Assembly (NCBI GenBank): GCA_002404155.1
Contig: DHJC01000073.1
Coordinates: 38,937 to 102,936, forward strand
DNA from: Chloroflexi bacterium UBA4730
GTDB taxonomy: Bacteria; Chloroflexota; Limnocylindria; P2-11E
Direction: 5' to 3'
DNA: 64,000 nucleotides
How positions within the stretch are numbered: position 1 is the first letter of the stretch; each line of letters begins with the position of its first letter. The notes under the pieces were generated by a model. It searched no databases and was not told where the DNA came from. It saw nothing but the letters and a program-made list of their open reading frames with translations. Position numbers and translations under genes: made by a program. Shown here piece by piece: positions 1,082 through 63,707 of this stretch.

Positions 1082-1090
1082 ACCGCGGGG

Positions 1091-2392: not shown

Positions 2393-2573
2393 CCTGACCG
2401 ACGGGGACCGGACTTACGGCAGCGCAGCGCAGCGCCGGCGTGCCGGCGGAGCGATCCAGATCGAGCAACCAGTTGCATTCTAGGCAGCGCGCGAGATCGA
2501 CCTCCTCGCCCCGCCGAGCGCAGTGCACCCGCCCGCTGGCAAGGACGGGACGCCAGCCACGCTCGCTATTCAT
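2361..2573 (-). CDS. Small Cys-rich hypothetical protein (70 aa), putative metal-binding
   Basis: MNSERGWRPVLASGRVHCARRGEEVDLARCLECNWLLDLDRSAGTPALRC...; ATG overlaps the end of the upstream PCYCGC gene (ATGAATAG), and the ORF overlaps the NnrS start. Confidence 0.55.
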   Translation of the reverse strand: MNSERGWRPVLASGRVHCARRGEEVDLARCLECNWLLDLDRSAGTPALRCAAVSPVPVGQDAGLADRHVD

Positions 2574-3024: not shown

Positions 3025-3025
3025 G

Positions 3026-3372: not shown

Positions 3373-3417
3373 CTGCCGTCCATGGGCCCAAGCTACGGGC
3401 GGAGTGCGGCCCCACCT

Positions 3418-3456
3418 ACGGCCGCAGGTCCCGACTCGCGTAGGCCGAACGGCCCG
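3418..3456. promoter_or_regulatory. Two DosR/OsdR-like boxes (3418-3433 ACGGCCGCAGGTCCCG; 3441-3456 TAGGCCGAACGGCCCG)
   Basis: Match to the recurrent intergenic motif, upstream of the multicopper-oxidase relic/PCYCGC/NnrS genes. Confidence 0.5.
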
Positions 3457-3468
3457 ACCCCCGCGTTC

Positions 3469-7512: not shown

Positions 7513-8292
7513 CTAGAAGTCCAAGAGCTGACCGTGGCCGGCGATGTAGTAGACGCGCGGGCCGGTGCCGAGCTCTTCCTTGTAGCGGAACGCGTCATTC
7601 TCCTTAAGGAACGTCGAGAGGCGTACGGTCCGGTCACCGTTCGTGGCGACGTCCTCGACGAGGTCGCCGATGTAGATCGCCTTCATGGGGCAGCCCTCAA
7701 CGCACGCGGGGAGCTGCCCCTCCGCGGTGCGGTGGACGCAGAACATGCATTTGCCGACGGTGCCCTTCTGCTGCGGCACCGGGAACTCCGGGGTCGCGTG
7801 TCCGAAGGGGTTGTCGTACTTCGGCGGGTCGACGTAGTTGAAGTAGCGGGCGCCGTACGGGCACGCCGCCATGCACATGCGGCAGCCGATGCAGCGGTCC
7901 TGATCGACGAGGACGACGCCGTCGGCTACACGGTAGGTCGCGGCGACCGGGCACACGCGGAGGCACGGGGCGTTCTCGCACTGGAAGCAAGGACGCGGCA
8001 TGAAGTACTCGCCGCCGTGCTTGTCCTTGACCTGGAAGACCTTGATCCACTCGAAGTTCTGCGGGAGGTGGTGCGTCTCCTGGCAGGCCTCCGTGCACTT
8101 CTTGCAGCCGTCGCAATTCCGAAGGTCGATGACCATCGCCCACTGACGCGGCTTGGCGTCGGGTGCGTGTTCCGACTCGGCCGCCGCCTCGAACGTGATC
8201 GGGGACATCCCGGCCGCGACGGCCACAGCGGCGCTGGCGCCCAGACCGCCGAGACCAACCAGGAGCTGCCTGCGGGAGACCGGGCCCGCCAT
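7513..8292 (-). CDS. Tat-exported 4x[4Fe-4S] ferredoxin subunit (NrfC/DsrO/DmsB-like)
   Basis: ATG at 8292 after a GAGGAGAGG RBS; SRRQLL twin-arginine signal; MVIDLRNCDGCKKCTEAC, CFQCENAPCLRVCP, CIGCRMCMAACPY, CMFC...ACVEGCP. Confidence 0.92.
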   Translation of the reverse strand: MAGPVSRRQLLVGLGGLGASAAVAVAAGMSPITFEAAAESEHAPDAKPRQWAMVIDLRNCDGCKKCTEACQETHHLPQNFEWIKVFQVKDKHGGEYFMPRPCFQCENAPCLRVCPVAATYRVADGVVLVDQDRCIGCRMCMAACPYGARYFNYVDPPKYDNPFGHATPEFPVPQQKGTVGKCMFCVHRTAEGQLPACVEGCPMKAIYIGDLVEDVATNGDRTVRLSTFLKENDAFRYKEELGTGPRVYYIAGHGQLLDF

Positions 8293-8368
8293 TTGTCCTC
8301 TCCTCATGCCGCGGTCTGACCAGTCAGCCGGGTTGGCTCCAAGATGGCGGGGGCGCCGGGCGCGAATA

Positions 8369-31782: not shown

Positions 31783-32883
31783 ATGGCCACCCTCCTCGAG
31801 CGCCTTGAGGCGAACGGGATCTCGCGTCGCTCCTTCCTCACCTACTGCGCATCCCTCACCACCATGCTCGCGCTCCCCGCGAGCTTGACCCCGCAGATCG
31901 CGAACGCGCTGTCCAAGGTCGACAAGCCAAGCATCATCTGGCGCGAGTTCCAGGACTGTGCCGGCAACACGGAATCGTTCCTGCGCTCCCGCAACCCGGG
32001 CGTCGCCGACCTCATCCTCGATCTCCTCTCCGTCGACTACCACGAGACGATCATGGCCGCGGCCGGCCGGCAGGCCGAGGCGGCAAGCGACGCGGCCGCG
32101 AAGAAGGGCGGTTACATCCTCGTCGTCGAGGGCTCGGTGCCGCTCAAGGACGACGGCGTGTACTGCACGATCGCCGGCAAGACCGCGAAGCAGCATCTCG
32201 AGGAACTCTCGAAGGGCGCCGCGGCCATCGTGAACGTGGGCACCTGCTCGAGCTACGGGGGCATTCCCGCGGCGAACCCGAATCCGACCGGCGCCGTGGG
32301 CGTGCCATCGCTCGTGTCGAACGTCCCGATCGTGAACCTGCCCGGGTGCCCGGCGAACGCGGACAACATCACCGCGACGTTCGTCCACTACCTGACCTTC
32401 GGGTCGCTGCCGGCGCGCGATCAGCTCGGCCGGCCGCTGTTCGCGTACGGCGAGCGCATCCACGACTCGTGCGAGCGGCGCGCGCATTTCGACGCGGGCC
32501 AGTTCGCGCTCGCGTTCGGCGACGAAGGCCATCGCAAGGGCTGGTGTCTGTACAAGCTCGGCTGCAAGGGACCGAACACGTTCAACAACTGCCCCGCGAT
32601 CCGCTGGAACGGCGGCACGAGCTGGCCGGTCGGCGCCGGTCACGGGTGCGTCGGGTGTTCCGAGCCGGAGTTCTGGGACGCGATGGGTCCGCTCTACCAG
32701 CACCTGCCCAATGTTTCCGGCTTCGGCGTGGAGGCGACCGCCGACCAGTTCGGCGTCGCGCTCGTCGGCGCCACCGCCCTCGCCTTCGCGGCGCACGGCG
32801 TCGCGAAGTACGCCCAGCACCGCATCACAGCCGAGCCAGCCGCGCAGCCGGTCGCGGCGGGCCAGCCCACCGAGGAGGACTAG
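31783..32883 (+). CDS. hyaA: Group 1 [NiFe]-hydrogenase small subunit, Tat-exported, C-terminal membrane anchor
   Basis: SRRSFLTYC Tat signal; FQDCAGNTES, VGTCSSYGG, PGCP, IHDSCERR, WCLYKLGCKGP, NNCP..RWN..TSWPVGAGHGCVGC; C-terminal TM. Confidence 0.95.
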   Translation: MATLLERLEANGISRRSFLTYCASLTTMLALPASLTPQIANALSKVDKPSIIWREFQDCAGNTESFLRSRNPGVADLILDLLSVDYHETIMAAAGRQAEAASDAAAKKGGYILVVEGSVPLKDDGVYCTIAGKTAKQHLEELSKGAAAIVNVGTCSSYGGIPAANPNPTGAVGVPSLVSNVPIVNLPGCPANADNITATFVHYLTFGSLPARDQLGRPLFAYGERIHDSCERRAHFDAGQFALAFGDEGHRKGWCLYKLGCKGPNTFNNCPAIRWNGGTSWPVGAGHGCVGCSEPEFWDAMGPLYQHLPNVSGFGVEATADQFGVALVGATALAFAAHGVAKYAQHRITAEPAAQPVAAGQPTEED

Positions 32884-34602
32884 ATGGCCCGCGTCGTCGT
32901 CGATCCGATCACCCGCATCGAGGGACACCTCCGCATCGAGGCCCAGGTAGACGCCGGGAAGATCACCAACGCGTGGTCATCGGGCACGATGTGGCGCGGC
33001 ATCGAGACGATCCTGCACGGGCGCGACCCGCGCGAGGCCTGGTACTTCGCGCAGCGCATCTGCGGGGTCTGCACGACGGTGCACGCGCTCACTTCGGTGC
33101 GAGCGGTCGAGGACGCCCTCGGGATCATCCCGCCGCTCAACGCGATCCTCATCCGCAACCTCATCACGTTGTCACAGTTCGTGCAGGACCACGCCGTCCA
33201 CTTCTACCACCTGCACGCGCTCGATTGGGTCGACATCGTGTCCGCGCTCGACGCGGATCCGGTCGCGACGTCGAAGCTCGCGCAGTCGATCTCCGACTAT
33301 CCGCGCTCGAGCCCGAAGCTCTTCTCCGCGGTCAAGGACCGCCTCACCTCGTTCGTGAAGGCGGGCCGACTCGGACCGTTCGCCAACGGCTACTGGGGCC
33401 ATCCGGCCTACAAGCTCCCGGCCGAGGCGAACCTCATGGCGGTGAGCCATTACCTTGACGCGCTCGACTTCCAGCGCGACTACATCCGCATCCACTCGAT
33501 CCTCGGCGGGAAGAACCCGCACCTCCAGACGTACCTCGTCGGCGGGATGAGCGTGCCGATCGATCCCAACAGCCAGGCCGCGATCAACGCCGGGACGCTC
33601 GCGGAGCTGCGGGTCATCCTGCAGAAGGGCCTCGACTTCGTCACCCAGGCCTACGTCCCGGACCTCATCGCGATCGCCTCCTTCTACACGGACTGGACCG
33701 CGATCGGCGGTGGGCTCGGCAACTACCTCTCGTTCGGCGAGTTCCCGACCGCCGCGACGAACCTCTCGAAGACCGACGCGGGCCTGTTCCTGCCGCGCGG
33801 CCTCGTCCTCGGGAAGGACCTCTCGAAGGTCCTGCCGGTCGATCCGCTCAAGGTCGCCGAGTACATCTCGCACTCCTGGTACTCCTACACGGTCGGCAAC
33901 GACAAACCGCTGCCGCCGTTCGAGGGCGAGACGACGCCGTCGTACACCGGCCCGAAGCCGCCGTACGACCAGCTCGACGTGGCGAGCAAGTACTCCTGGC
34001 TGAAGTCGCCGCGCTACGACGATCGCGCCGTCGAGGTCGGCCCGCTCGCACGGATGCTCGTCGCGTACGCCGCTGGCCACCCGCGGGTGAAGGAGCTCGT
34101 CGGGTACGTGCTCGGCCAGCTCAAGGTCGGCCCGGAGGTGCTCTTCTCGACGCTCGGCCGGACGGCCGCGCGGGGCATCGAGAGTCAGCTCCTCGCGGAA
34201 CAGTCGCTCAAAGTACTCGACCAGCTCGAGGCGAACATCGCCGGCGGGGACCTCCGCGTCCACGACGGCGCGAAGTGGGATCCAGGTACGTGGCCGGCCC
34301 GGGCGCAGGGCTTCGGCCTCCACGAGGCACCGCGCGGCTCGCTCTCGCACTGGGTGACGATCCAGAACACCAAGATCGAGGCCTACCAGATCGTGGTGCC
34401 CTCGACCTGGAACGCCGGCCCGCGCGATGCGAAGGGCCAGCGCGGCGCGTACGAATCCGCGCTCCTGAACACGCCCGTCGCCGATCCGGAGAAGCCGCTC
34501 GAGATCCTCCGCACCGTCCACTCGTTCGACCCGTGCATGGCCTGCGCCGCCCACATCCTCGATCCGCGCGGGAACGAGCTCGTCGAGGTGACGATCGCAT
34601 GA
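32884..34602 (+). CDS. hyaB: Group 1 [NiFe]-hydrogenase large subunit
   Basis: VVDPITRIEGHL, L1 QRICGVCTTVH, EAPRGSLSHW, VVPSTWN, L2 SFDPCMACAAH followed by a cleavable C-terminal tail. Confidence 0.97.
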   Translation: MARVVVDPITRIEGHLRIEAQVDAGKITNAWSSGTMWRGIETILHGRDPREAWYFAQRICGVCTTVHALTSVRAVEDALGIIPPLNAILIRNLITLSQFVQDHAVHFYHLHALDWVDIVSALDADPVATSKLAQSISDYPRSSPKLFSAVKDRLTSFVKAGRLGPFANGYWGHPAYKLPAEANLMAVSHYLDALDFQRDYIRIHSILGGKNPHLQTYLVGGMSVPIDPNSQAAINAGTLAELRVILQKGLDFVTQAYVPDLIAIASFYTDWTAIGGGLGNYLSFGEFPTAATNLSKTDAGLFLPRGLVLGKDLSKVLPVDPLKVAEYISHSWYSYTVGNDKPLPPFEGETTPSYTGPKPPYDQLDVASKYSWLKSPRYDDRAVEVGPLARMLVAYAAGHPRVKELVGYVLGQLKVGPEVLFSTLGRTAARGIESQLLAEQSLKVLDQLEANIAGGDLRVHDGAKWDPGTWPARAQGFGLHEAPRGSLSHWVTIQNTKIEAYQIVVPSTWNAGPRDAKGQRGAYESALLNTPVADPEKPLEILRTVHSFDPCMACAAHILDPRGNELVEVTIA

Positions 34603-51743: not shown

Positions 51744-52993
51744 AGGCGGAACTCACGCGGACACGCCGCCGCCTCGTCGCGATCGACCTCGCCGTGATCG
51801 CGCTGCTCCTTGTCGTCGCGGGGGCCGCGGTCTACGGGACGTTCGCGGTCACGCTGCTCGATCCGGTCGATGCTGCCCTCGGGGTGAGCTCCGCCGAACT
51901 GCAGCAGGGTGGCTCGCGCGAGATCGCTGAGCACTTCGGCGCCGGCTACCGCGGCGGCCAGTTCGTGCTGGTGGTCGGCGCTGAGGGGGGCATCCTGGCC
52001 GATCCGCAAGGCGTCGGTCTTGCGAATGGCGCCGCTCTCACCGCCCCGGGGCTGCACACCGTCCCGCTTGCGAACGGCGACGCACGCGTGCTCGCCACTC
52101 CCTTGGGTGCGAACCCTCCTGCGACGCTGGTGATTGGCAGCTCGCTGGTGACCCAGGAAGAATTCCTGCGGCACGTCATCGTCGTGTTGGTCGCGACCGG
52201 CTTCGGCGCATTTGTGCTGGCGTTCATCGCGGCTGAGCTTCTCGCCCGTCGTGCACTGGTGCCGATCGGCGAGGCGTTCCGTCGCCAGCAGGAGTTCGTC
52301 GCCGATGCGTCACACGAGCTCCGGACCCCGCTGACGATCCTGCGCACTGCACTGGAGCTCCTGGTGCGATCACCGGATCGGACCGTGGCAGAGAGCGCGG
52401 ATCTGGTCGCAGACGCGCATGGCGAGGTGCTTCAGATGGAGCACATGGTGGCCGACCTGCTCACCCTGGCACGCTCCGATCTCGACGCGCTGCCGCTCAC
52501 CCTCAGAGCAGTTGATGGTGCGGCGCTCATCCAGGAGGCCGCGGAGAGAGTCCGCGCACTCGCGGAGACCAAGGGCATCACCCTCCGTGTGCTGGCGCCG
52601 CTGCCGTGCCGGATCGAAGCCGACAGCGAGCGCATCGCGCAAGCGCTGCTCGCACTTACGGACAATGCCCTCCAGCACACGCCAGCGAGCGGCAAGGTCA
52701 CGCTCTCGGCGCAGCGCGAAGGCGAGACGGTCGTGCTCGCGGTCGCCGACACCGGTGAGGGCATCACCTCAGAGGATCTTGCGCGCGTTACCGACCGGTT
52801 CTACCGCGCGGGCCGCGCCCGCGCGCGCGCCGGAGGTGGCGCAGGGCTGGGCTTGGCGATCGTCCGCTCGATCGTCGAGGCGCATGGCGGGACGCTCACG
52901 ATCACCAGCGAGCCCGGTGCGGGAACGACGGTCCAGCTCCGACTGCGCGGCGTCCGGCAAGAGGTCGGCGCGCCCCTCGAGGCGGCGGCGTGA
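51740..52993 (+). CDS. Sensor histidine kinase (HisKA)
   Basis: Two TM; FVADASHELRTPLT; DNALQHT; DTGEG; GAGLGLAIV. Confidence 0.93.
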   Translation: MKAELTRTRRRLVAIDLAVIALLLVVAGAAVYGTFAVTLLDPVDAALGVSSAELQQGGSREIAEHFGAGYRGGQFVLVVGAEGGILADPQGVGLANGAALTAPGLHTVPLANGDARVLATPLGANPPATLVIGSSLVTQEEFLRHVIVVLVATGFGAFVLAFIAAELLARRALVPIGEAFRRQQEFVADASHELRTPLTILRTALELLVRSPDRTVAESADLVADAHGEVLQMEHMVADLLTLARSDLDALPLTLRAVDGAALIQEAAERVRALAETKGITLRVLAPLPCRIEADSERIAQALLALTDNALQHTPASGKVTLSAQREGETVVLAVADTGEGITSEDLARVTDRFYRAGRARARAGGGAGLGLAIVRSIVEAHGGTLTITSEPGAGTTVQLRLRGVRQEVGAPLEAAA

Positions 52994-54312
52994 GAGGGCG
53001 CGCTCTTCTCTGGCTCTTCGTCTTGAATGTCGTCGCCATCCTGGTGTTCTGGCATGCGGCGAGCGGCTCGGAGCCCATCGTCAGCGTCGGCGAGCGGTGG
53101 AACGCGATCGGTCGGGTCACCGGATTGGTGGGCACCTACCTCGTCCTCGTCCAGTTGCTGCTGATCTCGCGCGTGCCGTGGCTCGAGGACGCCGTTGGGA
53201 TGGAGCGTCTGCTGGTATTCCACCGCTGGAACGCCTATGCGTCGCTGAGCCTGATCGTCGGGCACGCGGGGTTCCAGACCGTGGGCTACGCCGCGGTCAA
53301 TCGTCTTGGTATCGCCTCGCAGCTCGGAGACTTCGTCCTCCATTACGACGGGCTGCTCGGCGCGATCGTGGCGCTCGGGCTCCTGATCGGCGTGACCGTG
53401 CTGTCGGTCGCGATCGTCCGGCGGTTGCTCGCGTACCACGCCTGGTATTTCGTCCATCTGTACGCGTACCTCGCCGTCGCCCTCGCGTTCGGGCATCAGC
53501 TGGCCACCGGCGTGGACTTCGTCTCGAACCCCACCTTTCAGGCGTACTGGTGGGCGCTCTACGCCGTCGTCGCCGGGTCGCTCCTCTACTTCCGCGTGGC
53601 CCAGCCGCTCCTGCGTTTCGCGCGGCACCGCTTCCGGGTGGAGCGCATCGAGCGCGAGGCGACCGGGGCGGTCTCGATCTATGTCGGCGGCCGGGACCTG
53701 CGCACGTTTGCCTTCGAGCCCGGTCAGTTCGCGATCTGGCGCTTCCTCGATGGCCGACGCTGGTGGGAGGCGCATCCGTTCACGCTCTCGACCCTCCCGA
53801 GCGATCGCCGGCTGCGCCTCACGGTGAAGGGCAGTGGTGACTTCTCCTCACGACTCACGAACCTCCGAGTCGGCACGCCTGTTCTGGTGGAGGGCCCGTT
53901 CGGCCACTTCACCGTCGACGGAGCGACCAAGCCCAAGGTGCTGCTCATCGCCGGCGGGATCGGCATCACCCCGATCCGGGTCCTCGCGGAGCGATTCGCC
54001 CAGACTGGTCGGGATGTCTGTTTGCTCTACCGCTGCCGGCACGAGCGGGACCTGACGTTTCGCAAGGAGCTCGACAAGCTGGCGGTCGATCGGGGTATCC
54101 GGGTCGAGTACCTGCTCAGTGACCGGCCGCTCCTTGGTCGAGTCGGCTCGGAGTGGCTGCAGCCGACGGATCTTGGCGTGCTGGTCCCGGATGTACGCGA
54201 GCGCGAGGTGTACGTGTGCGGCCCGGACGGCTTGATCGCCCAGATCAAGCGCGCCCTTACGGCACTAGGCATCGAAGCTGGGCAAATCCATTCGGAGGTC
54301 TTTCATTTCTGA
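52990..54312 (+). CDS. Ferric-reductase-like transmembrane oxidoreductase with FAD/NAD(P)H-binding domains
   Basis: Heme His pairs (FHRW...GH; FVHLYAYL...FGH), HPFTLS, EGPFG, LIAGGIGITP, VYVCGP, HSEVF. Confidence 0.9.
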   Translation: MRGRALLWLFVLNVVAILVFWHAASGSEPIVSVGERWNAIGRVTGLVGTYLVLVQLLLISRVPWLEDAVGMERLLVFHRWNAYASLSLIVGHAGFQTVGYAAVNRLGIASQLGDFVLHYDGLLGAIVALGLLIGVTVLSVAIVRRLLAYHAWYFVHLYAYLAVALAFGHQLATGVDFVSNPTFQAYWWALYAVVAGSLLYFRVAQPLLRFARHRFRVERIEREATGAVSIYVGGRDLRTFAFEPGQFAIWRFLDGRRWWEAHPFTLSTLPSDRRLRLTVKGSGDFSSRLTNLRVGTPVLVEGPFGHFTVDGATKPKVLLIAGGIGITPIRVLAERFAQTGRDVCLLYRCRHERDLTFRKELDKLAVDRGIRVEYLLSDRPLLGRVGSEWLQPTDLGVLVPDVREREVYVCGPDGLIAQIKRALTALGIEAGQIHSEVFHF

Positions 54313-54758
54313 TGACTAGAGTCACTGCGGCACTCACCGCGACCGTGGCGGGGCTGATCCTGATCGCGACGTTCAAGGTGAGCCCGGAAGACGCAGCCGG
54401 TCTGGAGCCGACGCCCTCAGCCTCGGCGGGAGCCGGTCGTCTGACCGGACCGACGCCGTCGACCGGGCGGCCTGCCAGCAGCGGCACGGTCACCGGAGAT
54501 TCGGTCCAGACCATCTTCGGCAACGTGCAGGTCGCGATCACGGTCTCCGGGACCAAGCTGGTCGACGTGCAGGCACTCACGCTCCCAAGCGACCGGAGTC
54601 GCTCGGCCAGGATCAGCGACTACGCCGGACCCATGTTGCGCAGCGAGGCGATCCAGGCACAGAGCGCGCAGATCCACGTGGTCTCGGGCGCGACGTACAC
54701 GAGCCGTGCGTATAGCCAGTCGCTCGCGAGCGCCTTGAAGAAGGCGCACCTCGGGTAG
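54312..54758 (+). CDS. Membrane-anchored FMN-binding (flavinylated) domain protein
   Basis: N-terminal anchor, P/S/T linker, FGNVQV, VVSGATYTS (S/T-GA-T flavinylation motif). Confidence 0.88.
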   Translation: MTRVTAALTATVAGLILIATFKVSPEDAAGLEPTPSASAGAGRLTGPTPSTGRPASSGTVTGDSVQTIFGNVQVAITVSGTKLVDVQALTLPSDRSRSARISDYAGPMLRSEAIQAQSAQIHVVSGATYTSRAYSQSLASALKKAHLG

Positions 54759-54764
54759 CTGTCG

Positions 54765-55535
54765 GTGCAGGTCATCAAAGAGGTGATGGGCATGCCGATC
54801 ACGGTCGACGTCCGGGACCCAGATCCACCCGCGTCCGCCGTGGCCGAGGCCTTCGCGGACCTTGCGGCCGTCGACCGAACGTTCAGTCCGTTCGTGGCCG
54901 AGAGCGCGGTCAGTCGGATCAATGCCGGGCGGCTGCAGCCGTCCGAGGCCGAGCCGCTCGTCCAAGAGGTGCTCGCGCTCTGCCGGCGCTACGAGCGCGC
55001 GACCGACGGCTACTTCGCGGCGTGGATCGCTGGGCGTCTTGACCCATCGGGTCTGGTGAAGGGCTGGGCGATCGCCCGGGCCTGCGCGATCCTCGACCGC
55101 CACGGCTGCCAGAACTATTTCGTCGACGCCGGGGGTGACGTGCAAACCCGCGGATGGAGCGAGCCGCGGGTCCCCTGGCGGGTGGGCATCAGACATCCGG
55201 TGGAGAAAGACAAGGTCACCCGGGTGATCCGTGCGACCGGTCTCGGGGTCGCGACCTCCGGCACCTACGAGAAGGGGGCCCACATCCTCGACCCGCACAC
55301 CGGACACCCGGCGACCGAGCTCCTCTGCATGACCGTCGTCGGGCCGGACATCCTGGAGGCAGACGTGTATGCGACGGCGGCCTTCGCCATGGGTCGCCGG
55401 GGGCTCGACTTCATCGAGCGGCTCCCGGGGTTGGAGGCCTATGCGATCGGGCCCGACCTGGTCGCCTCGTGGACCGCCGGCTTCGACGCCTACTGCGAGG
55501 CCGCGGCTCCAGCTCGCGGGGTGCGGCGCACCTAG
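54765..55535 (+). CDS. apbE: FAD:protein FMN transferase
   Basis: VMGMPITV, FSPF...SAVSRIN, TDGYF, LDPSGLVKGWA, DAGGDV, VATSGTYE..HILDP, ADVYATAAFAMG. Confidence 0.92.
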   Translation: MQVIKEVMGMPITVDVRDPDPPASAVAEAFADLAAVDRTFSPFVAESAVSRINAGRLQPSEAEPLVQEVLALCRRYERATDGYFAAWIAGRLDPSGLVKGWAIARACAILDRHGCQNYFVDAGGDVQTRGWSEPRVPWRVGIRHPVEKDKVTRVIRATGLGVATSGTYEKGAHILDPHTGHPATELLCMTVVGPDILEADVYATAAFAMGRRGLDFIERLPGLEAYAIGPDLVASWTAGFDAYCEAAAPARGVRRT

Positions 55536-56167
55536 CCGCGCTCGACGAGGCCCTCGCGGACCGCGCGGGTAGCGAGCTCGACCCGGCTCTCCGCGTGAAG
55601 CTTCTCGAGGATGTTCTTCAGGTGGAATTTGGCGGTGTTCTCGGTGATCCCCAGCGTCGCCGCGATCTCCTTGTTACGAAGCCCCGTGGTGACGAGGCGA
55701 AGCACCTCGACTTCGCGGTCGGTGAGCCGATCAGGATCGGCGCGCACGCGCTCGGGGTGCTGAAATTCGTCGAGGATCCGGGCCGCGGTCGCGGGGGTGA
55801 TCGCCGCCTCGCCGCGCTCGACGGCGCCGAGCATGAGCCGGAACTGGGCGCTCTCCAGGTTCTTCTGCAGGTAGCCCTGCGCTCCGGCCTTGATCGCGTT
55901 GAACAGATCGTCTTCGTCCTCGCTCACCGTGAGCATCACGATCGCGATGTCCGGATGGCGTGCCCTGATGAGCTTGGTCGTCTCGACACCGGAGGGGCCG
56001 GGCATCCGCACGTCCATGAGGACGAGCTCCGGAAGCACCCGATCGACGAGCGCGATCGCCTCGGTCCCGTTGGCCGCTTGGCCGACGACGGTGTGGCCCC
56101 AGGCTTCGAGGAGGGCGCCGACGCCGTCGCGGAAGAGGGCGTGGTCGTCGACCAGGACGATCCGCAT
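55532..56167 (-). CDS. NarL/LuxR-family response regulator
   Basis: MRIVLVDDHALFRDG, LMDVRMP, MLTVSED, GAQGYLQK, LTDREVEVL...GLRNKEIA..L.ITENTAKFHLKNILEKL. Confidence 0.93.
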   Translation of the reverse strand: MRIVLVDDHALFRDGVGALLEAWGHTVVGQAANGTEAIALVDRVLPELVLMDVRMPGPSGVETTKLIRARHPDIAIVMLTVSEDEDDLFNAIKAGAQGYLQKNLESAQFRLMLGAVERGEAAITPATAARILDEFQHPERVRADPDRLTDREVEVLRLVTTGLRNKEIAATLGITENTAKFHLKNILEKLHAESRVELATRAVREGLVERG

Positions 56168-56168
56168 G

Positions 56169-57416
56169 TCAGCCGGCCAGGCCGACCGCGTGACCGATCG
56201 GCACGCGGAGGCGCAGGACGGTGCCCGCGCCGGGCTCGGTGGACCACGACACGGAGCCGCCGACGGAGGCCGCCCGCTCGCGGATCGCCCGCATGCCATA
56301 TCGAGGCCAGTCCTCCGGACCGGACGCACGAAGATCGAACCCCGTGCCGTCGTCCTCCACGAGGAGCACGAGCTCGCGATCGCGGGCGTCGACCTCCACA
56401 CGCGCGCGCCCGGCCGACGCGTGCTTCCGGATGTTCGTGAGGCCCTCCTGGACGATGCGGAACACCTGCGCCTGGATCTCCGGCGGGAGCTGAACGACGC
56501 GCGCCAGGGGGCTCGCGTCGACCTGGGTGACCAGCTTCGACGCTTCCGAGAACCGGACCGCGTATTCCTCGAGCGCGCCGACGAGGCCGCGCTCCGGCAC
56601 GATCGGGCTGGAGAGGCCGAGGATGGCTTCGCGCACGTCGACGTAGACGGAGCGCGCGGCCGCAGAGAGCTCGGCGAGCTGCTGCCGGGCCCGATGGGTG
56701 TTCCCCGCGGAGAGCAGCTCCTCGACCGCCTGGGCCTTCGTGTTCACGTATCCGAGGACCTGCGCGAGGCCGTCGTGCATTTCGTGCGCGATCCGGTCGC
56801 GCTCTCCCCTGATGGCGAGCTCACGTAGCTCCCGCTGCAGCCGGACGTTCTCGAGCGCGACGGCCGCTTGGGCGGCGAGCGCAGACAGCATCTCGAGGTC
56901 CTCGGGTCCGTAGCGGCGCCCGTCGGACAGCGATCCGACCGCGAGCGTGCCGATGGTCGCCGGTCCCCGCTGCAACGGCGCGACGAGGCGGGCGCTCCGC
57001 GCCCTGGGATCGCCGTCCATGATGGCGATCTGTTCCGAGCCGTCGGGCGCGACGAGCGTCGTGAAGGCCGCGTCCGTTTCGAGCAGGAGCCGCGCATCGG
57101 CGACGACCGCACGCAGGATCTCGTCGCTCCCGACGAGGGTCGTCATCTTCATGCCGAGGCGACGCAGGGCCTGGAGCGACGCGTTCCGCCGCTCGAGCGT
57201 CGCGTTGCGCTCCCGCAGGGTGTCCGAGAGACGGTCGATCCGCCGGAACGCGATCCGCCCGAGGACGAGCGACAGGAGGAGCACCGCGGTCGGAATGACG
57301 AGGACGTCGAACGGCGCCGGGAGGATCCGGTCGAGGATGCTGTCGCTCGCGAACTCGAGGAGGCCGACCAGCACCACCGGCAGGGCGATGACGGACCAGC
57401 GGATCTTCGACAGCAT
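56169..57416 (-). CDS. Sensor histidine kinase (HisKA_3, NarX/NarQ-like architecture)
   Basis: Two TM, short GAF-like segment, ERDRIAHEMHDGLAQ, EGLTNIRKHA, DDGTGF, YGMRAIRERA. Confidence 0.9.
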   Translation of the reverse strand: MLSKIRWSVIALPVVLVGLLEFASDSILDRILPAPFDVLVIPTAVLLLSLVLGRIAFRRIDRLSDTLRERNATLERRNASLQALRRLGMKMTTLVGSDEILRAVVADARLLLETDAAFTTLVAPDGSEQIAIMDGDPRARSARLVAPLQRGPATIGTLAVGSLSDGRRYGPEDLEMLSALAAQAAVALENVRLQRELRELAIRGERDRIAHEMHDGLAQVLGYVNTKAQAVEELLSAGNTHRARQQLAELSAAARSVYVDVREAILGLSSPIVPERGLVGALEEYAVRFSEASKLVTQVDASPLARVVQLPPEIQAQVFRIVQEGLTNIRKHASAGRARVEVDARDRELVLLVEDDGTGFDLRASGPEDWPRYGMRAIRERAASVGGSVSWSTEPGAGTVLRLRVPIGHAVGLAG

Positions 57417-57466: not shown

Positions 57467-57580
57467 TTCATTGGTGCCGAACGGCCTTCCTGCAAGTGCC
57501 GAACGGCACCAATCGGCCCATTCGATGGAGCAGGTCTCGGCCCACCCGGTCGCGTGTGGTGGCCCTCCGCGGCGAGAACG

Positions 57581-59542
57581 ATGCTCGTGACCGTGGCGTA
57601 TACGTTCCAGGTCGAGCGGTCGGGCTGCCTGAACTGTGGCGTCTGCATGGACGTCTGTCCGGTGCACGCCCTGGACATGACGCGGCGCACGGGGACATCG
57701 ATCGAGTCAGGAGCGGTCCGGCACCGGGCGTCGGCGGACGCCGGGGGTCAGGACTGGATGATGGAATTCCCGATCCAGACCGGGGTCTGCGTCGGCTGCC
57801 AGCTCTGCGCGACCGAGTGCCCCACGAGCGTGATCACGATCACCGCGGCTGTGGGGCGGACCGCGCTCGCACCTCCGCAGGGCCCGATCACGGCCGCGCC
57901 CGAGACGACCGGATGGGCGCCGCTCTCCGCCTACACGCACGATGCGCTGCGCGAGCCGCGGGGCGATCCGTGGGGTGCGCTCGCCGAGTGGCGTCCGGTG
58001 AACCGCCCTGACGCCTGGCAGACGTGGCGCGGCTGGGGCGATCCGGCGACGGCGCGATTCCTCGCGCCGTGCCAGGAGGCGTGCCCGGTCGGCACCGACG
58101 CGGGCCTCTATGTCGCGCTCGTCGGCGAAGGTCGCTATGCGGAGGCGTTCGCGGTGGCCGCCGAGTACAACCCGTTCCCGTCGATCTGCGGACGCGTGTG
58201 CACGGCTCCGTGCGAGATCGCGTGCCGGCGCGGCGTGCTCGACGAGCCCATCGCCATCCGTGAGCTGAAGCGGTTCGCCGCCGATCACGGGGCGGCCGGG
58301 TATCCCCGTCCGGTCCCCGCCGAGCGGCGCCGGGTCGAGCGGGTGGCGATCGTCGGCGCCGGCCCGACCGGGCTCAGCGCCGCGTACGCGCTGATCCGCT
58401 CCGGGTACGGCGTGACCGTCTTCGACGCGATGCCCGTCGCCGGCGGGATGATGGCGATCGGGATCCCCGAGTACCGCCTGCCCAAGGACGTGCTGCGAGC
58501 GGATGTCGATCGCATCGTCGGCCTCGGCGTGGAGCTGCGACTCAACACCGCGCTCGGGCGCGACATCAGCCTCGAGCAGCTCAAGGCCGAGGGCTACGAC
58601 GCCATCCTCCTCGCGACGGGTGCCTCGAAGAGCCAGCGCCTCGGGATCGCGGGCGAGGATGCCGAAGGGGTCTGGCCCGCGACGCTGTTCCTGAAGAAGG
58701 TGAACCTGGGCGAGCCCGTGGAGCTGACCGGTGAGGCGCTGGTCGTCGGTGGGGGCTCCACCGCGCTGGATGCCGCACGCACCGCCTGGCGAGCGGGGGC
58801 CCGGACCGTTCGCATCCTCTATCGCCGCACGAAAGAGGACATGCCCGCGCAGCACGAGGAGCTTCGCGCCGCCGACCACGAAGGCGTGGTCATCGAGCCG
58901 CTCGTGGCTCCGATCGAGGTGCTTCGCAAGAACGGTTGGATGACCGGCGTGCGCTGCGTGCGCCTCGCGATCACCGGTCGCGACGCCGATGGGCGGAGCG
59001 CGGTGGCGCCGATCCCCGGCAGCGAGTTCGTGATCGAGGCGTCCGCGCTCATGGTCGCGGTCGGCGAAGCCCCCGATCCGTCGATCCTGCCGGAAGGATC
59101 GAACATCCAGGTCGCCGAATGGGGCGGTGTCGTCGTCGACGCCGAGTCGCTCGCGACGGCGCAGCGCGGGATCTTCGCCGCGGGCGACGTGGCGACCGGT
59201 CCGCGGAGCGTCATCGAGGGAGCGGCCCAAGGGCAGCGCGCCGCGTGGGCGATCGATCGGTATCTACGGCACCAGGACGACGGCACCGACGTGGCCACAT
59301 ACGTGCCGAGCTGGCGCGTCACGCCGTCAGTTCCCAGCACGAAAACCGTCGCCGTCGACCTCGCGCAACGACCGCGCGCGGAGGCCGCCCTCGCGAGCGT
59401 TCGCGGGACGCCGGCGAGCTACGCGGAGGTCTCGCTCGGTCTCACCGAAGCCACCGCTCGCGCGGAAGCGACGCGCTGCTTCCGCTGCGACGTGATCGCG
59501 CAGTGCCCGGCCGTCCAAGTCCAAGGGAGGAGATCAGCATGA
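57581..59542 (+). CDS. 2x[4Fe-4S] ferredoxin fused to a GltD/NfnB-like FAD/NAD(P)H oxidoreductase
   Basis: CLNCGVCMDVCP and CVGCQLCATECP; APCQEACP, CGRVCTAPCEIAC; GAGPTG; GIPEYRLP; GGGSTALD; LYRR; AAGD; C-terminal EATRCFRC. Confidence 0.9.
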   Translation: MLVTVAYTFQVERSGCLNCGVCMDVCPVHALDMTRRTGTSIESGAVRHRASADAGGQDWMMEFPIQTGVCVGCQLCATECPTSVITITAAVGRTALAPPQGPITAAPETTGWAPLSAYTHDALREPRGDPWGALAEWRPVNRPDAWQTWRGWGDPATARFLAPCQEACPVGTDAGLYVALVGEGRYAEAFAVAAEYNPFPSICGRVCTAPCEIACRRGVLDEPIAIRELKRFAADHGAAGYPRPVPAERRRVERVAIVGAGPTGLSAAYALIRSGYGVTVFDAMPVAGGMMAIGIPEYRLPKDVLRADVDRIVGLGVELRLNTALGRDISLEQLKAEGYDAILLATGASKSQRLGIAGEDAEGVWPATLFLKKVNLGEPVELTGEALVVGGGSTALDAARTAWRAGARTVRILYRRTKEDMPAQHEELRAADHEGVVIEPLVAPIEVLRKNGWMTGVRCVRLAITGRDADGRSAVAPIPGSEFVIEASALMVAVGEAPDPSILPEGSNIQVAEWGGVVVDAESLATAQRGIFAAGDVATGPRSVIEGAAQGQRAAWAIDRYLRHQDDGTDVATYVPSWRVTPSVPSTKTVAVDLAQRPRAEAALASVRGTPASYAEVSLGLTEATARAEATRCFRCDVIAQCPAVQVQGRRSA

Positions 59543-60171
59543 CACCCGATCAGCTCGCGGACGCGATCGTCAAAGCTTTCCTGCAAGGTGGTGAGGGGTT
59601 CCTCGAGGGGACCATGGCGGCGGCGCTGCCGATCATCTGGCTGCTCGCCCTCGCCCTGCACCTCGCCCGTCCCTACATGCTCCGCATGACCCAGAAATTC
59701 ACCCTGCGGCTCGCCGCGGACATCTGGTGGGTGCTCTACATCGCGCTCCGCGATGGCCTCCTGGCGGTCGCTTTCATCATGAGCTTCATGTTCCTCTTCC
59801 CCGACGTCCTGCTCGCCGATGCTCTGCCGATCGGCGGATCGATCGCGACGGCGCTGCTGTTCGGGGTGCTGCTCACCAAGCTCGTCGCGGACACGGACGA
59901 TGACCCGCGCGCCTTCCGCCTGGTCTCGGGTCTGCTCGCCGGCGGCGTGGCCGTCTACGTCCTCCCGACGATTATCGGCGTGCAGGTGAGCGCGCTCGAT
60001 CTCGGAGATCCCTGGAACAGCATCGGGCAGTCGCTCGTGACGTCCACGAACGGAGCCCTGGCGATCACGTTCTGGTGGATCTCGCTCCTGGCGATCGGCG
60101 TGATGGGCGTCGTGGCGGTGTGGTTCAACCTGCGTACGCCCGGAATGACCCTTGGGAGGGCCGCACGATGA
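59539..60171 (+). CDS. Hypothetical multi-pass membrane protein, paralog A
   Basis: GGGAGG RBS; MTPDQLADAIVKAF; LHLARPY; FTLRLAADIWW..Y...RD; KL..D.DD. Confidence 0.8.
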   Translation: MTPDQLADAIVKAFLQGGEGFLEGTMAAALPIIWLLALALHLARPYMLRMTQKFTLRLAADIWWVLYIALRDGLLAVAFIMSFMFLFPDVLLADALPIGGSIATALLFGVLLTKLVADTDDDPRAFRLVSGLLAGGVAVYVLPTIIGVQVSALDLGDPWNSIGQSLVTSTNGALAITFWWISLLAIGVMGVVAVWFNLRTPGMTLGRAAR

Positions 60172-60815
60172 CACCCGATCAGATCACCGAGGCGATCACC
60201 AAGGCCTTTGTCGAAGGCGGGCAGCAGTGGCTCGTCCTCACGATCGCGGCATTCATGCCCGCGCTCTGGGCGTTCACGCTGATGCTCCATCTCGCGCGCC
60301 CCTACGTGATCCGCACGCTGCGCAAGCTGTCCCTGCGCTTCGGCGCCGACGTGTGGTGGCTGACCTACGTCCTCGTGCGCGACGCCGTGACCATCCTCAC
60401 GTTCGGTCTCAGCTTCATCTTCCTGATGCCGAACCTCATCCTCACGTTCGACCTCCCGCTCACCGCGCCGCTCGCCACGCTGTTCCTCTTCTGGGCGCTC
60501 TACGTGAAACTGCTCTACGACGCCGACGACAACTTCGGGGCGTACCGGCTCGTCACCGCGCTGCTCGTGATCGGCGCGACGCTCTACTTCGTCCCGCAGA
60601 CGCTCGGGCTCGAGTCGAACTCGCAGGACTACCTGGCAGGACTCGTCTCCTTCTTCGATTCGACGAAGAACCAGGCATGGGCTGGGCCGATCCTGATCGT
60701 CGCGCTCATCGGGTCTGCAGTGACGGCCGGGGCGATCTTCTGGCGCGTCGTGCTCGCTCCTGCGGGGTCGGCGGCCGCTGCGACCGGCGGGCAGCCGCGT
60801 CCGGCGACACGTTGA
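60168..60815 (+). CDS. Hypothetical multi-pass membrane protein, paralog B
   Basis: GGGAGG RBS; MTPDQITEAITKAF; LHLARPY; LSLRFGADVWW..Y...RD; KL..D.DD; ATGA overlap with paralog A. Confidence 0.8.
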   Translation: MTPDQITEAITKAFVEGGQQWLVLTIAAFMPALWAFTLMLHLARPYVIRTLRKLSLRFGADVWWLTYVLVRDAVTILTFGLSFIFLMPNLILTFDLPLTAPLATLFLFWALYVKLLYDADDNFGAYRLVTALLVIGATLYFVPQTLGLESNSQDYLAGLVSFFDSTKNQAWAGPILIVALIGSAVTAGAIFWRVVLAPAGSAAAATGGQPRPATR

Positions 60816-60864: not shown

Positions 60865-61752
60865 ATGAGGGGCTCGATCTCGCGGCGAGGGTTCCTTGCT
60901 CGGCTGGGCGTGGGTGCGGGCGCCGCGGTGGTGGCCACCGGATTCGTGCCGATCCATTTCGACGCAGCGGCCTCGCCGCAGGCGACCGCGGCCGCCACGA
61001 ACAAGCGCCTGCGCCGCTGGTCGATGGTCATCGACTTACGGCGGTGCGACGGCTGTCAGGCGAACGGCACGCCACCGCAGTGCACCGAGGCGTGCATCCA
61101 GGGTCACTTCGTGCCAGAGCCGATGGAGTGGATCCAGGTGTACGAGGCGCCGCTCGACGCTGGTGGCAAGGCAACGCAGTTCATCCCCGCACCGTGTCAG
61201 CAGTGCCAGAACCCGCCGTGCGTGAACGTCTGCCCGGTCGCGGCGACCTACTCGACGCCCGAAGGCGTTGTCCTGATCGACCAGCAGCGCTGCATCGGCT
61301 GCCGGCTGTGCATGGAGGCGTGCCCCTACGACCGCCGCTTCTTCAACTGGGGCAACCCGCCGCAGCCGCCGGAGGCGATGTTCATGGACTACTCGCCCGA
61401 GCACCAGACACCGGCCATCCGCGGGACGGTGATGAAGTGCGACTTCTGCCCGGATATGGCGCGCGCCGGGCGCCTGCCGTATTGCTGCCAGGGTTGCCCG
61501 AACAACGCGATCTACTACGGCGACCTCGAGGAGGACGTCGCGACCAACGGGGTCGAGGTGGTCAAGCTCTCCAAGTTCCTCGCCGACCACACCGGCTACC
61601 GGCTGAAGGAAGAGCTCGGTACCGAGCCCCGAGTCCACTACATCCCCGGGCATGGCGAGCTCATCGGCCGGGATCCGACCAAGACGGGCCGCAAGCCAAC
61701 GACCTGGCCCTGGGTAAAGCTCATCCAAGGAGCGCTGACATGGACGCGCTGA
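60865..61752 (+). CDS. Tat-exported 4x[4Fe-4S] ferredoxin subunit (NrfC/DsrO-like), second copy
   Basis: SRRGFL Tat signal; MVIDLRRCDGC...CTEAC, CQQCQNPPCVNVCP, CIGCRLCMEACPY, CDFC...CCQGCP. Confidence 0.92.
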   Translation: MRGSISRRGFLARLGVGAGAAVVATGFVPIHFDAAASPQATAAATNKRLRRWSMVIDLRRCDGCQANGTPPQCTEACIQGHFVPEPMEWIQVYEAPLDAGGKATQFIPAPCQQCQNPPCVNVCPVAATYSTPEGVVLIDQQRCIGCRLCMEACPYDRRFFNWGNPPQPPEAMFMDYSPEHQTPAIRGTVMKCDFCPDMARAGRLPYCCQGCPNNAIYYGDLEEDVATNGVEVVKLSKFLADHTGYRLKEELGTEPRVHYIPGHGELIGRDPTKTGRKPTTWPWVKLIQGALTWTR

Positions 61753-63707
61753 GCTCGCACGAGGCCCCTGGCGTCACACCCCAGTGGCGGGAGCGCCTCG
61801 AGCGGCGCGCGCTCGCACCCCTCGCCTCGACCGGGCGGCGGTACTGGCTGTGGATCGGTTTTCTCCTGCTCACCATCAGCTGGGGGCTCTACGCCTGGTC
61901 GACGCAGTTGGAGAACGGCCTGATCGTCACCGGCCTGCGCGACCGCATCTCCTGGGGCGTGTACATCGCGAGCTTCGTCTTCTTTATCGGCATCAGCCAC
62001 GCCGGGACGCTCCTCTCGGCGATCCTCCGCGCGACCAAGGCGCGCTGGCAGCTCTCGATCACCCGCATGGCCGAGCTCATCACTGTCGTGGCGCTGTGCG
62101 TGGGGGCGCTGTTCCCCTTCATCGACATGGGCCACCCCGAACGCTTCATGAATCTGGTGTTCTTCGGCCGCTGGCAGTCGCCGCTCATCTGGGACATCCT
62201 CGCGATCACGACCTATCTCACCGGGTCGTCGCTCTACCTGCTGCTGCCGCTCATCCCCGACTTCGCGCTCGCCCGCGATCGGCTCGGCGCCACCGCGTCG
62301 CGCTTTCACCGCACCCTCTTCACCTTGGCCGCGGTCGGCTACCACGGGACGCCAGCTCAGCGGAAGGCGCTTGAGCGGGCGATGACTGTGATGATGATCA
62401 TCATCATCCCGGTCGCGGTGTCCGTGCACACCGTGGTCTCCTGGATCTTCGCGATGACCCTGCGGGTCCCGATGAACACCACGGTGTTCGGGCCCTTCTT
62501 CGTCGCTGGCGCGATCTACTCGGGCATCGCCGCGATCGTGTTGCTGATGGCGGTGCTGCGCAAGGTCCTGCACCTCGAGGAGTTCATCACGATCACGCAG
62601 TTCAGGTGCCTGGGCTATCTCCTGGGAGCGTTCACGCTGATCATGGCCTACTTCAACCTGCAGGAGTACGCGGTCCATGGCTACAAGCTCGAGGCCGGCA
62701 TGCCGTTCCACTTCGCCCAGCTCATGACCGGACCCTTCTGGCCACTCTTCTGGTTCTACATCCTGGGCGGCATCGTCCTTCCCGGTCTGCTCATCCTCAA
62801 TCCGGGTACCCGCACGATCCGGGGCATCGTCGCCGCCTCCGCGCTCGCGCTTCTCGGCATGTGGGGCGAGCGGTATCTGATCGTGGTGACGGGCTTCCGA
62901 GTGCCGCTCATGCCCTACGCGCCGTCGGACTACACCCCGACCTGGGTCGAGTGGTCGATCCTCGCGGGCGCGCTCGGCCTCTTCGCGCTGATCATCTCGA
63001 TCTTTGCCAAGCTCTTCCCGGTCATCTCGGTCTGGGAGGTGACCGAGCACCGCGGCCCAGAGCCCGTTGCCGAGTACCAGGCCCCGGCCCGTCGGCGGGT
63101 CGGCGCCGCGGCGGGAGCGGGCCTCCTCACCCTGCTCATGGTCGGCGGGACCGCGGCGGGCTTCATCCTCGGCTCGCAGGCGAGCGCCGACGGACGGACA
63201 GCGACCCAGATCACCGTGGCCGTTCCCGGGCAGGTGGCACTCGGCCAGACCATCGAGGCCCAGGCGCGGCTGCTCGACGGGACCGGCACACCCATCGCGA
63301 AGGCCATCATCCAGTTCACGGTCCCGCTCGCCTTCCTCGAATCGAGCAGCGACGTGGTGCTCGCCCAGGCGACGACCGACAAGAGTGGAATCGCGGACGT
63401 GCGGTTCGATATCCGGACCTCCGGAGCGCTCGAGGTGCACGCGGTCTACGCCGGGGACGATCGCTACGCGCCCGGGACCGCTGTCGCCCCGGTGACTGTC
63501 AACGGCGATCAGCAGCTCTACGTGCAGCACGCGGGCGTACCGGTGCCTGGGCTGAATGAGGCGCCTTCCCAGGTGTCCGCCGCTGACTCGCTGTGGCCTG
63601 GCTTGAGCGGATGGCCGATCGCGCTCGTGCTCATCGTCGTCTGGTCGCTCTTCGCCTTCGTCGCGGTGCTCGTCGCCCGCATCGCGCGAGTCCAGGAGGT
63701 CCCGTAG
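61740..63707 (+). CDS. NrfD/DsrP-family membrane subunit fused to a C-terminal TM + Ig-like + TM module
   Basis: GLIVTGLRDRISWGVYI, DMGHPERF, SPLIWD, SVHTVVSWIF, YTPTWVE; after the NrfD end comes a TM, then GTPIAKAIIQF...AQATTDKSG...SGALEVHAVYAGD and WPIALVLIVVWSLFAFVA. Confidence 0.9.
   Translation: MDALSSHEAPGVTPQWRERLERRALAPLASTGRRYWLWIGFLLLTISWGLYAWSTQLENGLIVTGLRDRISWGVYIASFVFFIGISHAGTLLSAILRATKARWQLSITRMAELITVVALCVGALFPFIDMGHPERFMNLVFFGRWQSPLIWDILAITTYLTGSSLYLLLPLIPDFALARDRLGATASRFHRTLFTLAAVGYHGTPAQRKALERAMTVMMIIIIPVAVSVHTVVSWIFAMTLRVPMNTTVFGPFFVAGAIYSGIAAIVLLMAVLRKVLHLEEFITITQFRCLGYLLGAFTLIMAYFNLQEYAVHGYKLEAGMPFHFAQLMTGPFWPLFWFYILGGIVLPGLLILNPGTRTIRGIVAASALALLGMWGERYLIVVTGFRVPLMPYAPSDYTPTWVEWSILAGALGLFALIISIFAKLFPVISVWEVTEHRGPEPVAEYQAPARRRVGAAAGAGLLTLLMVGGTAAGFILGSQASADGRTATQITVAVPGQVALGQTIEAQARLLDGTGTPIAKAIIQFTVPLAFLESSSDVVLAQATTDKSGIADVRFDIRTSGALEVHAVYAGDDRYAPGTAVAPVTVNGDQQLYVQHAGVPVPGLNEAPSQVSAADSLWPGLSGWPIALVLIVVWSLFAFVAVLVARIARVQEVP

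Follow-up and report, generated by a model that had tools for sequence, protein, structure and literature searches.

Gene Organization at the Locus

The window analyzed here, i.e., the whole 64,000-nucleotide stretch of contig DHJC01000073.1 from Chloroflexi bacterium UBA4730, carries two tandem genes for membrane proteins, which we call A (59539..60171, forward strand, 210 residues) and B (60168..60815, forward strand, 215 residues), directly downstream of a gene for an iron-sulfur (Fe-S) flavoprotein (57554..59542, forward strand). As an earlier interpretation made from the letters alone (the sequence-only reading) had held, both open reading frames are real and their products are paralogs (44% identity over 154 residues by BLASTP, E 2e-46). 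Each protein has five predicted transmembrane (TM) helices. The motifs MTPDQ, AI.KAF..GG, LHLARPY, LR..AD(I/V)WW..Y...RD, and KL..D.DD are common to the two proteins; all the motifs quoted in that reading were found, except that F(T/S)LR is wrong for B, which has LSLR where A has FTLR. The source genome contains this A/B pair only, with no other copies of the family.

The stop codon of the flavoprotein gene and the start codon of A overlap in the tetranucleotide ATGA (59539-59542), and the same overlap joins the stop of A to the start of B (60168-60171). Such overlaps run from the flavoprotein through A to B; the next junction, from B to an NrfC-like Fe-S protein gene, is a gap of 49 nucleotides. 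The observation of the sequence-only reading was confirmed, and its interpretation, a heterodimeric anchor or an ion or electron conduit, was partly supported by the results below.

A Previously Undescribed Family of Membrane Proteins

Neither A nor B matched any entry of Pfam or NCBIfam, even at E ≤ 1, and both sequence and profile searches of the PDB were also negative. When 33 diverse members of the family were compared with Pfam, scattered noise affecting single members was all that appeared. Foldseek searches of the PDB with the structural models gave no match either (best E 0.46 for A and 0.74 for B), with query-normalized template-modeling scores mostly ≤0.30 and 0.34 at the maximum; no structural neighbor of A or B was found in the PDB. 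The statement that the two proteins match no recognized family was thus borne out. A HMMER search over 1.84 billion cluster representatives retrieved just 208 relatives, and every member with a source name was labeled "hypothetical protein." Proteins nearly identical to those of the window bear names of Candidatus Limnocylindria, phylum Chloroflexota. No description of this membrane family was found in a literature search. Natural fusions of A to B, or of the membrane protein to a ferredoxin, were also sought and none was credible, the long matches P0148, P0259, and P0129 looking like frameshifted read-throughs. A and B are members of a previously undescribed five-helix membrane family and fold, which is the partner of a dedicated ferredoxin.

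Topology and Conserved Residues

Hydropathy and AlphaFold2 models agreed on five TM helices following an N-terminal amphipathic helix in both A (predicted local distance difference test score 92.5, predicted template-modeling score 0.85) and B (92.7 and 0.85, respectively). Ten Lys and Arg residues are found in the loops after TM1, TM3, and TM5 vs. one in the remaining loops, and in distant homologs a signal peptide and an extracytoplasmic domain precede TM1. This charge bias, together with the position of the signal peptide and the extracytoplasmic domain, places the N-terminus outside and the C-terminus inside. It follows from this topology that the LHLARPY motif (H/Q41, R44, Y46) and residues R57, D61, K114, and D120 lie at the cytoplasmic face, where a ferredoxin without signal peptide would also sit.

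Across the 33 diverse members, D61 and R71 were invariant, and R44, Y46, R57, W64, D72, and P88 were conserved in at least 90%. The residues R57, D61, W64, Y67, and R71 form a conserved stripe along one face of TM2, a helix of 30 residues with the R71-D72 pair at its middle, and polar residues were conserved at the outer face as well (D/N89, Q/E149, and S/T168). R71-D72 and the outer-face polar residues may offer a route for protons or lock the dimer. No conserved Cys was present among 153 A and B orthologs. The two window proteins carry all the motifs of the family, i.e., five TM helices, (H/Q)xxR(P/G)Y, LRxxAD.WW, and the mid-TM2 RD.

According to the sequence-only reading, the His of LHLARPY in each protein could jointly ligate a heme. 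This residue (position 41) is the sole semi-conserved His per subunit and is located at the cytoplasmic end of TM1. It was present in 73/73 B orthologs and 72/80 A orthologs; Gln or Leu was counted in 6/77 A orthologs, and Gln in five to seven. Family-wide it was not conserved: among 431 members there were 298 with His, 122 with Gln, and 11 with another residue, and Gln occupied the position in 100 of the 101 archaeal members. Since Gln is incapable of ligating heme, a bis-His heme is not a feature of the family, and the joint ligation that had been suggested is refuted as a family trait by the sequence-only reading's own criterion of a conserved His. The interchange of His and Gln would fit a hydrogen-bonding role, for instance to a quinone carbonyl; as both residues are hydrogen-bond donors, quinone binding is plausible.

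The Upstream Flavoprotein and Its Ferredoxin Module

The flavoprotein gene matched Fer4_7, Fer4_20, and Pyr_redox_2 in Pfam and PRK12771 in NCBIfam. Fer4_20 (3e-19) and Pyr_redox_2 (1.6e-29) exceeded the Pfam cut-offs, and no equivalog-level cut-off of NCBIfam was reached. Translation probably starts at the ATG at 57581, as judged from the M(A/G)YxF with which the orthologs open. Three parts can be distinguished in the predicted protein: a dedicated 2x[4Fe-4S] ferredoxin module that has a tail rich in Trp and Arg (residues ~15-170, about 57596-58063), a GltD/NfnB-like module for two [4Fe-4S] clusters, flavin adenine dinucleotide (FAD), and NAD(P)H (residues ~171-575), and a C-terminal tail with a conserved C-x2-C-x5-C motif (C642, C645, and C651; 59464-59542).

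The closest PDB chains were 9bov_A, 9n5u_A (NfnA), 8oh5_C (E 7.1e-99), and 4ylf_B (E 5.7e-83), and residues about 171-647 were homologous to NfnB, StnC, NfnA(Bfu), and GltD, with E values from 1e-115 to 1e-59. On this sequence evidence the upstream gene product belongs to the GltD/NfnB-like Fe-S flavoproteins and, because of the clear homology of that part to NfnB, StnC, NfnA(Bfu), and GltD, the GltD/NfnB-like portion is taken to be a bacterial add-on that is predicted to supply an input made of NAD(P)H, FAD, and two [4Fe-4S] clusters. The flavoprotein has 18 Cys. All but one of them, C642, C645, and C651 included, were retained in at least 59 of the 61 orthologs examined; the exception, C468, was retained in 55/61. 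The C-terminal motif, kept in 60/61, follows an EA.RC sequence that StnC and 9bov_A also have, and may represent either a remnant or a three-Cys site for a fifth cluster.

The ferredoxin module had counterparts encoded as separate genes. Thus, residues 16-167 of the flavoprotein displayed 35% identity with the archaeal stand-alone ferredoxin P0274 (E 2e-26), and the same segment aligned with stand-alone ferredoxins of the distant loci L084, L087, L088, and L089. In seven such modules that were compared, an insert (WMMEFPIQ) between the two Cys motifs was common to all, as was the Trp/Arg-rich tail QGP..GW.PL.AYT...DPWG...W(R)..R..QTWR. Their best named matches were NuoI/TYKY, FwdF, and PsaC, all far under family cut-offs. 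The assignment of the module to NuoI/TYKY was considered and rejected (TIGR01971, 43 bits where 113 are required; scores with the remaining NuoI models were also far too low).

Linkage of the Membrane Protein to a Dedicated Ferredoxin

Close relatives were collected by a genome scan with one genome per species, in which a 12-sequence alignment used as query gave 468 matching stretches, and the window's five proteins were mapped onto the best 80 of them. The order flavoprotein-A-B was found in about 71 of these 80 loci, in Limnocylindria, Dormibacterota, Ktedonobacteria (including the cultured Ktedonobacter sp. SOSP1-85 and Dictyobacter aurantiacus S27), and Thermomicrobiaceae. At three loci a stand-alone ferredoxin took the place of the flavoprotein; its gene precedes A in L025 and separates A from B in L049 and L073. 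The remaining loci were truncated contigs, apart from second A/B copies at two loci that are considered further below. All-against-all clustering over the 80 loci revealed no other conserved neighbor family and no third partner. One record labeled Nitrosotalea sp. (L014) carried a flavoprotein-A-B unit about 60-67% identical to those of Limnocylindria and Dormibacterota, and looks like a bacterial contig mis-binned into an archaeal metagenome-assembled genome.

Seven distant contexts from other lineages (L084, L087, L088, L089, L152, L153, and L154) were also inspected; the archaeal relatives are labeled as Micrarchaeota, Marsarchaeota, and Nitrososphaerota. In all seven, the gene for a dicluster ferredoxin (148-197 residues) lay downstream of the membrane gene or genes, and immediately after them in six, a multicopper-oxidase-like gene lying in between in L087. 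The deeper core is formed by the membrane protein and a dedicated ferredoxin with two [4Fe-4S] clusters, in near-obligate linkage in both bacteria and archaea.

Two further observations were made in these contexts. At the L087 locus (940-3511), on a metagenome contig of low guanine-plus-cytosine content, the lone family member has a signal peptide, and its gene is followed by those for the multicopper-oxidase-like protein and then the dedicated ferredoxin. A second small ferredoxin gene (90-97 residues) adjoins the membrane-protein/ferredoxin pair in L153 (6398-6670) and L154 (6492-6785), archaeal contigs of a branch that includes a Nitrososphaerota-labeled member, and its product may be a soluble redox partner.

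Repeated Duplication into Pairs

In a tree of 66 members, the bacterial A and B proteins formed separate clades (support 100/98 and 97/86), and the paralogs of archaeal pairs were sisters within the archaeal clade. This position of the archaeal paralogs indicated that duplication into a pair took place at least twice. Single-copy forms of the family occur in L087-L089 and L152-L154. The family probably began as a homodimer from which heterodimers would have evolved repeatedly, as expected for a symmetric dimer that binds one asymmetric partner.

Tandem pairing was nearly constant. The family was present in 28 genomes of a 301-genome sample of the phylum, and 26 of these 28 had two or more copies, in tandem wherever positions were listed. 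Several conserved residues were specific to A (E19, E23, G24, F54, D89, D118, Q149, G190, and A193) or to B (R49, W63, T78, D121, R127, E149, and Q153), and at position 89 of B the majority residue was N (62/73). Residues of the cytoplasmic loops were partly complementary in charge, with D in A and R in B at both position 49 and position 118, and the small residues G190 and A193 were found in TM5 of A alone. The paralog-specific residues fit an obligate A/B heterodimer, and together with the ancient separation of the two clades and the near-constant tandem pairing they agree with the proposal that the diverged pair has been retained as a heterodimer.

Neighboring Genes and the Wider Window

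Downstream of B lie genes for an NrfC/DsrO-like Fe-S protein (60865..61752, forward strand) and for an NrfD/DsrP-like quinone-interacting membrane subunit (61740..63707, forward strand). The former has a twin-arginine translocation (Tat) signal (SRRGFL) and is of the four-cluster type; it matched Fer4_11 and the DsrO, NrfC, and TtrB models, all under cut-offs. The latter starts 13 nucleotides before the end of the NrfC-like gene, matched Pfam NrfD (8.5e-34), and has a C-terminal immunoglobulin (Ig)-like domain (Big_3_5, under cut-off) and a TM helix fused to it. No terminator-like site was found between B and the NrfC-like gene in the window.

The pair does stand between a flavoprotein and an Fe-S subunit in the window, as the sequence-only reading had noted, but the NrfC side of this arrangement was not conserved. 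NrfC/NrfD adjoined the pair in 0/79 other genome loci. Among these, L001, whose A protein is 94% identical, was available for 3.5 kb downstream of B and lacked NrfC/NrfD over that length. In a reciprocal scan centered on the NrfC-like protein of the window, which gave 62 metagenome loci, the unit adjoined NrfC in three: L104 and L145 have the gene order of the window, and L111 has NrfC-NrfD-Ig followed by the flavoprotein and A. In view of these frequencies, NrfC-NrfD-Ig is a recurring but occasional neighbor, which makes up a quinol-linked module of its own outside the core, and a conduit leading from the flavoprotein to a periplasmic NrfC is unlikely.

A two-component system (55532..57416, reverse strand), identified with Pfam, is transcribed divergently from the flavoprotein gene; its sensor kinase is of the GAF-HisKA_3 type (56169-57416) and its response regulator of the LuxR/NarL type. 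The system may regulate the flavoprotein-A-B operon, and of the 80 loci, 12-18 likewise had histidine kinase and response regulator clusters in the vicinity of the unit. A phosphoketolase cluster was present in 5/80 loci, and an acetate kinase gene lay beside it in both of the loci inspected, close to flavoprotein-A-B (L030, 972-4703, Ktedonobacter; L016, 11070-14541, Dormibacterota).

Other redox genes were found in the window. There are two NrfC-NrfD modules, at 5522-8300 (reverse strand) and at 60865-63707 (forward strand), with no catalytic subunit evident for either. The Ig-like/TM protein is encoded by a separate gene after NrfD in the first module and is fused to the C-terminus of NrfD in the second; metagenome relatives presented split and fused forms, some of them ordered NrfD-NrfC-Ig. 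An open reading frame for a copper nitrite reductase-like protein (NirK-type, cupredoxin) with an N-terminal TM segment (1-1008, reverse strand) runs off the start of the window, and lies near the first module and a lipoprotein-like periplasmic protein of 498 residues (3469-4965). The small (Tat signal) and large (PF00374, E 5.5e-225) subunits of an uptake-type [NiFe] hydrogenase are encoded at 31783-34602 (forward strand). A ferric-reductase-like membrane flavocytochrome of the NOX/FRE type, which has an FAD and an NAD domain, makes up, together with the FMN_bind protein and the ApbE flavin transferase encoded after it (52990-55535, forward strand), a second set for electron transfer from NAD(P)H to the outside, just upstream of the two-component system.

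Proposed Function of the A/B Pair

We hold with moderate confidence that A and B form a heme-free heterodimeric membrane module that docks the dedicated ferredoxin and, together with the flavoprotein, constitutes a membrane-bound NAD(P)H-oxidizing enzyme whose acceptor is probably a quinone. The ferredoxin module, which has no signal peptide, would dock via its Trp/Arg-rich tail on the acidic and aromatic cytoplasmic face of the A/B dimer. Electrons would then pass from NAD(P)H to FAD, to the two GltD-type [4Fe-4S] clusters, to the two ferredoxin-type [4Fe-4S] clusters, and finally to an acceptor held by A/B. This acceptor would be a membrane quinone, bound at a putative site at the cytoplasmic face formed by H/Q41, R44, Y46, R57, D61, and W64. 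A quinone is the most economical acceptor because the membrane part has no metal or heme ligands, and the carriers examined respire aerobically and have enzymes that depend on quinones (cytochrome bd, COX1, and NuoH). The R71-D72 pair and the outer-face polar residues could conduct protons or stabilize the dimer, so that an energy-coupled or reverse-running enzyme is also conceivable. The data themselves show the paralogy, the topology, the lack of conserved heme or Fe-S ligands in the membrane part, the near-obligate linkage to the ferredoxin family, and the repeated independent duplication; we infer that the proteins dock physically, that a quinone accepts the electrons, which way the electrons flow, and any coupling to ions.

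A more specific version of this proposal seems possible to us, although on the unlikely side: a heme-free ferredoxin:quinone oxidoreductase (NADPH:quinone where the GltD-like part is fused), proton-coupled through the mid-membrane Arg-Asp pair, which would represent a new class of respiratory enzyme in bacteria and archaea.

Several observations weigh against the docked, quinone-reducing module. No quinone-binding motif could be assigned in A or B, and the acceptor could be something other than a quinone. An ion path would explain the mid-membrane Arg-Asp pair and the polar residues of the outer face no less well than a quinone site would. Two loci (L021 and L042) have second A/B copies with no ferredoxin nearby. 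In addition, the distant members P0172, P0184, and P0151 have His/Asp/Glu-rich extracytoplasmic N-termini, and some others an Ig-like N-terminal domain; together with the multicopper oxidase neighbor, these domains hint at metal chemistry on the outer face.

In one alternative, A/B is an ion or metal translocator, working either as a pump driven by redox chemistry or as a redox-gated channel or carrier (of H+, Na+, or a metal cation, for example), and the ferredoxin provides driving force or control instead of reducing a lipid-soluble acceptor. The R71-D72 pair in the middle of TM2, the stripe from R57 to R71, and the conserved D/N89, Q/E149, and S/T168 of the outer face would all fit such a function, as would the extracytoplasmic domains and the one multicopper oxidase neighbor of the distant members. 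However, electrons entering from the ferredoxin need a sink, and the conserved unit encodes none but a membrane acceptor; no similarity to a known transporter or pump fold was detected, and the metal-related extras are limited to a few branches. We consider this explanation improbable.

A similarly low probability is given to a merely structural role, in which A/B would be a passive tether and the ferredoxin or flavoprotein would exchange electrons with a membrane enzyme encoded elsewhere, such as NrfCD-Ig here, or a desaturase, a reductase, or a respiratory complex. In favor of a tether, A/B lack cofactor ligands, the adjacency of NrfC-NrfD-Ig recurs in two gene orders (that of the window, L104, and L145, and that of L111), and the window as a whole is rich in respiratory genes, forming an island that also includes NirK, another NrfCD, a [NiFe] hydrogenase, and a reductase of the NOX type. 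Nevertheless, the conservation of charged and aromatic residues within the bilayer and at both faces goes much beyond the needs of a simple tether, and the 80 loci contained no conserved third partner.

Finally, an SdhC/SdhD-like arrangement, in which A and B contribute one His each to a joint heme b and conduct electrons from the flavoprotein to the periplasmic NrfC-like protein, would agree with the LHLARPY His of both window proteins and nearly all their orthologs and with the position of the pair in the window, where a cytoplasmic flavoprotein is encoded on one side and, with no terminator in between, an Fe-S protein exported by the Tat system on the other, but it is very improbable given the frequent Gln at position 41, the location of this residue at the cytoplasmic end of TM1, from which one heme is unable to span the membrane, the lack of a second conserved ligand pair, the absence of NrfC/NrfD beside the pair in the other genome loci, and the lack of sequence or fold similarity to SdhC/D, NarI, and other cytochromes b. 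A heme limited to the bacterial clade would likewise sit at the cytoplasmic surface without bridging the membrane to NrfC.

Comparison with Known Systems

Known families of membrane redox subunits were considered for A/B and rejected. For a heme b anchor of the SdhC/SdhD type, the axial His is not conserved, and there was no Pfam match to Sdh_cyt or Fumarate_red_C/D at E ≤ 1 and no similarity in the PDB or in fold. Diheme cytochrome b conduits (NarI, DsrM, HdrE, and HmcE) need four conserved His on two helices, and A and B have one semi-conserved His each. The NrfD/polysulfide reductase family (PF03916) gave no match and has eight or more TM helices instead of five. Membership of the RnfA/E - NqrD/E family was discarded since no Cys is conserved in the 153 orthologs and no Rnf-Nqr Pfam match was obtained.

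Some of these systems and others nevertheless resemble the module proposed here. SdhC/SdhD and FrdC/FrdD are also heterodimers of small paralogous membrane subunits on which an Fe-S protein docks at the cytoplasmic side, with a quinone site near the last cluster; docking and quinone site would be the counterparts in A/B. FrdC/FrdD of E. coli is heme-free. In contrast, these subunits have three TM helices vs. five in A/B, their partner is a three-cluster protein of the SdhB type vs. a ferredoxin with two [4Fe-4S] clusters, and neither sequence nor fold is similar to A/B, in which the His is not conserved. The seating of a ferredoxin with two [4Fe-4S] clusters and extensions on a membrane subunit is known from NuoI (TYKY) on NuoH in complex I and from PsaC on PsaA/PsaB in photosystem I, and among named families NuoI came closest to the ferredoxin module, if only weakly; the window's module differs by its own insert and Trp/Arg tail, and A/B are unrelated to NuoH and PsaA/B. 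With NfnB, GltD, StnC, and NfnA(Bfu) (4ylf_B, 5jca_L, 8oh5_C, 9n5u_A, and 9bov_A), the flavoprotein has in common the Fer4_20 and Pyr_redox_2 parts over residues ~171-647, whereas the partners of those proteins are soluble (NfnA, GltB, Fdh-like, and hydrogenase-like) and the window protein has an N-terminal ferredoxin module and is encoded with two membrane proteins but with none of these soluble partners.

RnfA/RnfE and NqrD/NqrE are tandem paralogous membrane proteins of ~200 residues that form heterodimers in ferredoxin- or NADH-linked redox complexes. They differ from A/B in having opposite topologies and a Cys-ligated intramembrane Fe-S center, in contrast to the lack of conserved Cys in A/B. 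NrfD-type subunits, which are heme-less, act with NrfC-type proteins (NrfCD, DsrOP, QrcCD, and ActBC) in electron exchange between quinones and poly-Fe-S proteins, and charged residues have been proposed for proton paths in them (PMC8076601). The likeness to A/B lies in the concept of a cofactor-free membrane subunit beside a docked poly-Fe-S protein; there is no homology, NrfD-type subunits have eight or more TM helices vs. five, and the Fe-S partner of A/B is cytoplasmic and not exported by the Tat system.

Biological Significance

As every member seen is labeled "hypothetical protein," a new protein family and fold for annotation would follow from these results. The module ranges over Chloroflexota (about 9% of the sampled genomes), Dormibacterota, Micrarchaeota, Marsarchaeota, and Nitrososphaerota, and its presence in cultured Ktedonobacteria makes it directly testable. 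The re-oxidation of ferredoxin and the link between NADPH and the respiratory chain are only partly understood in aerobic archaea and many soil bacteria. Should the proton-coupled oxidoreductase be true and run in reverse, H2- or CO-oxidizing aerobic soil bacteria and aerobic archaea would be able to make NADPH or reduced ferredoxin from quinol by spending proton-motive force. A heme-free module with a new fold and its dedicated ferredoxin, if the proposal is correct, would be a new site at which low-potential electrons enter or leave respiratory membranes.

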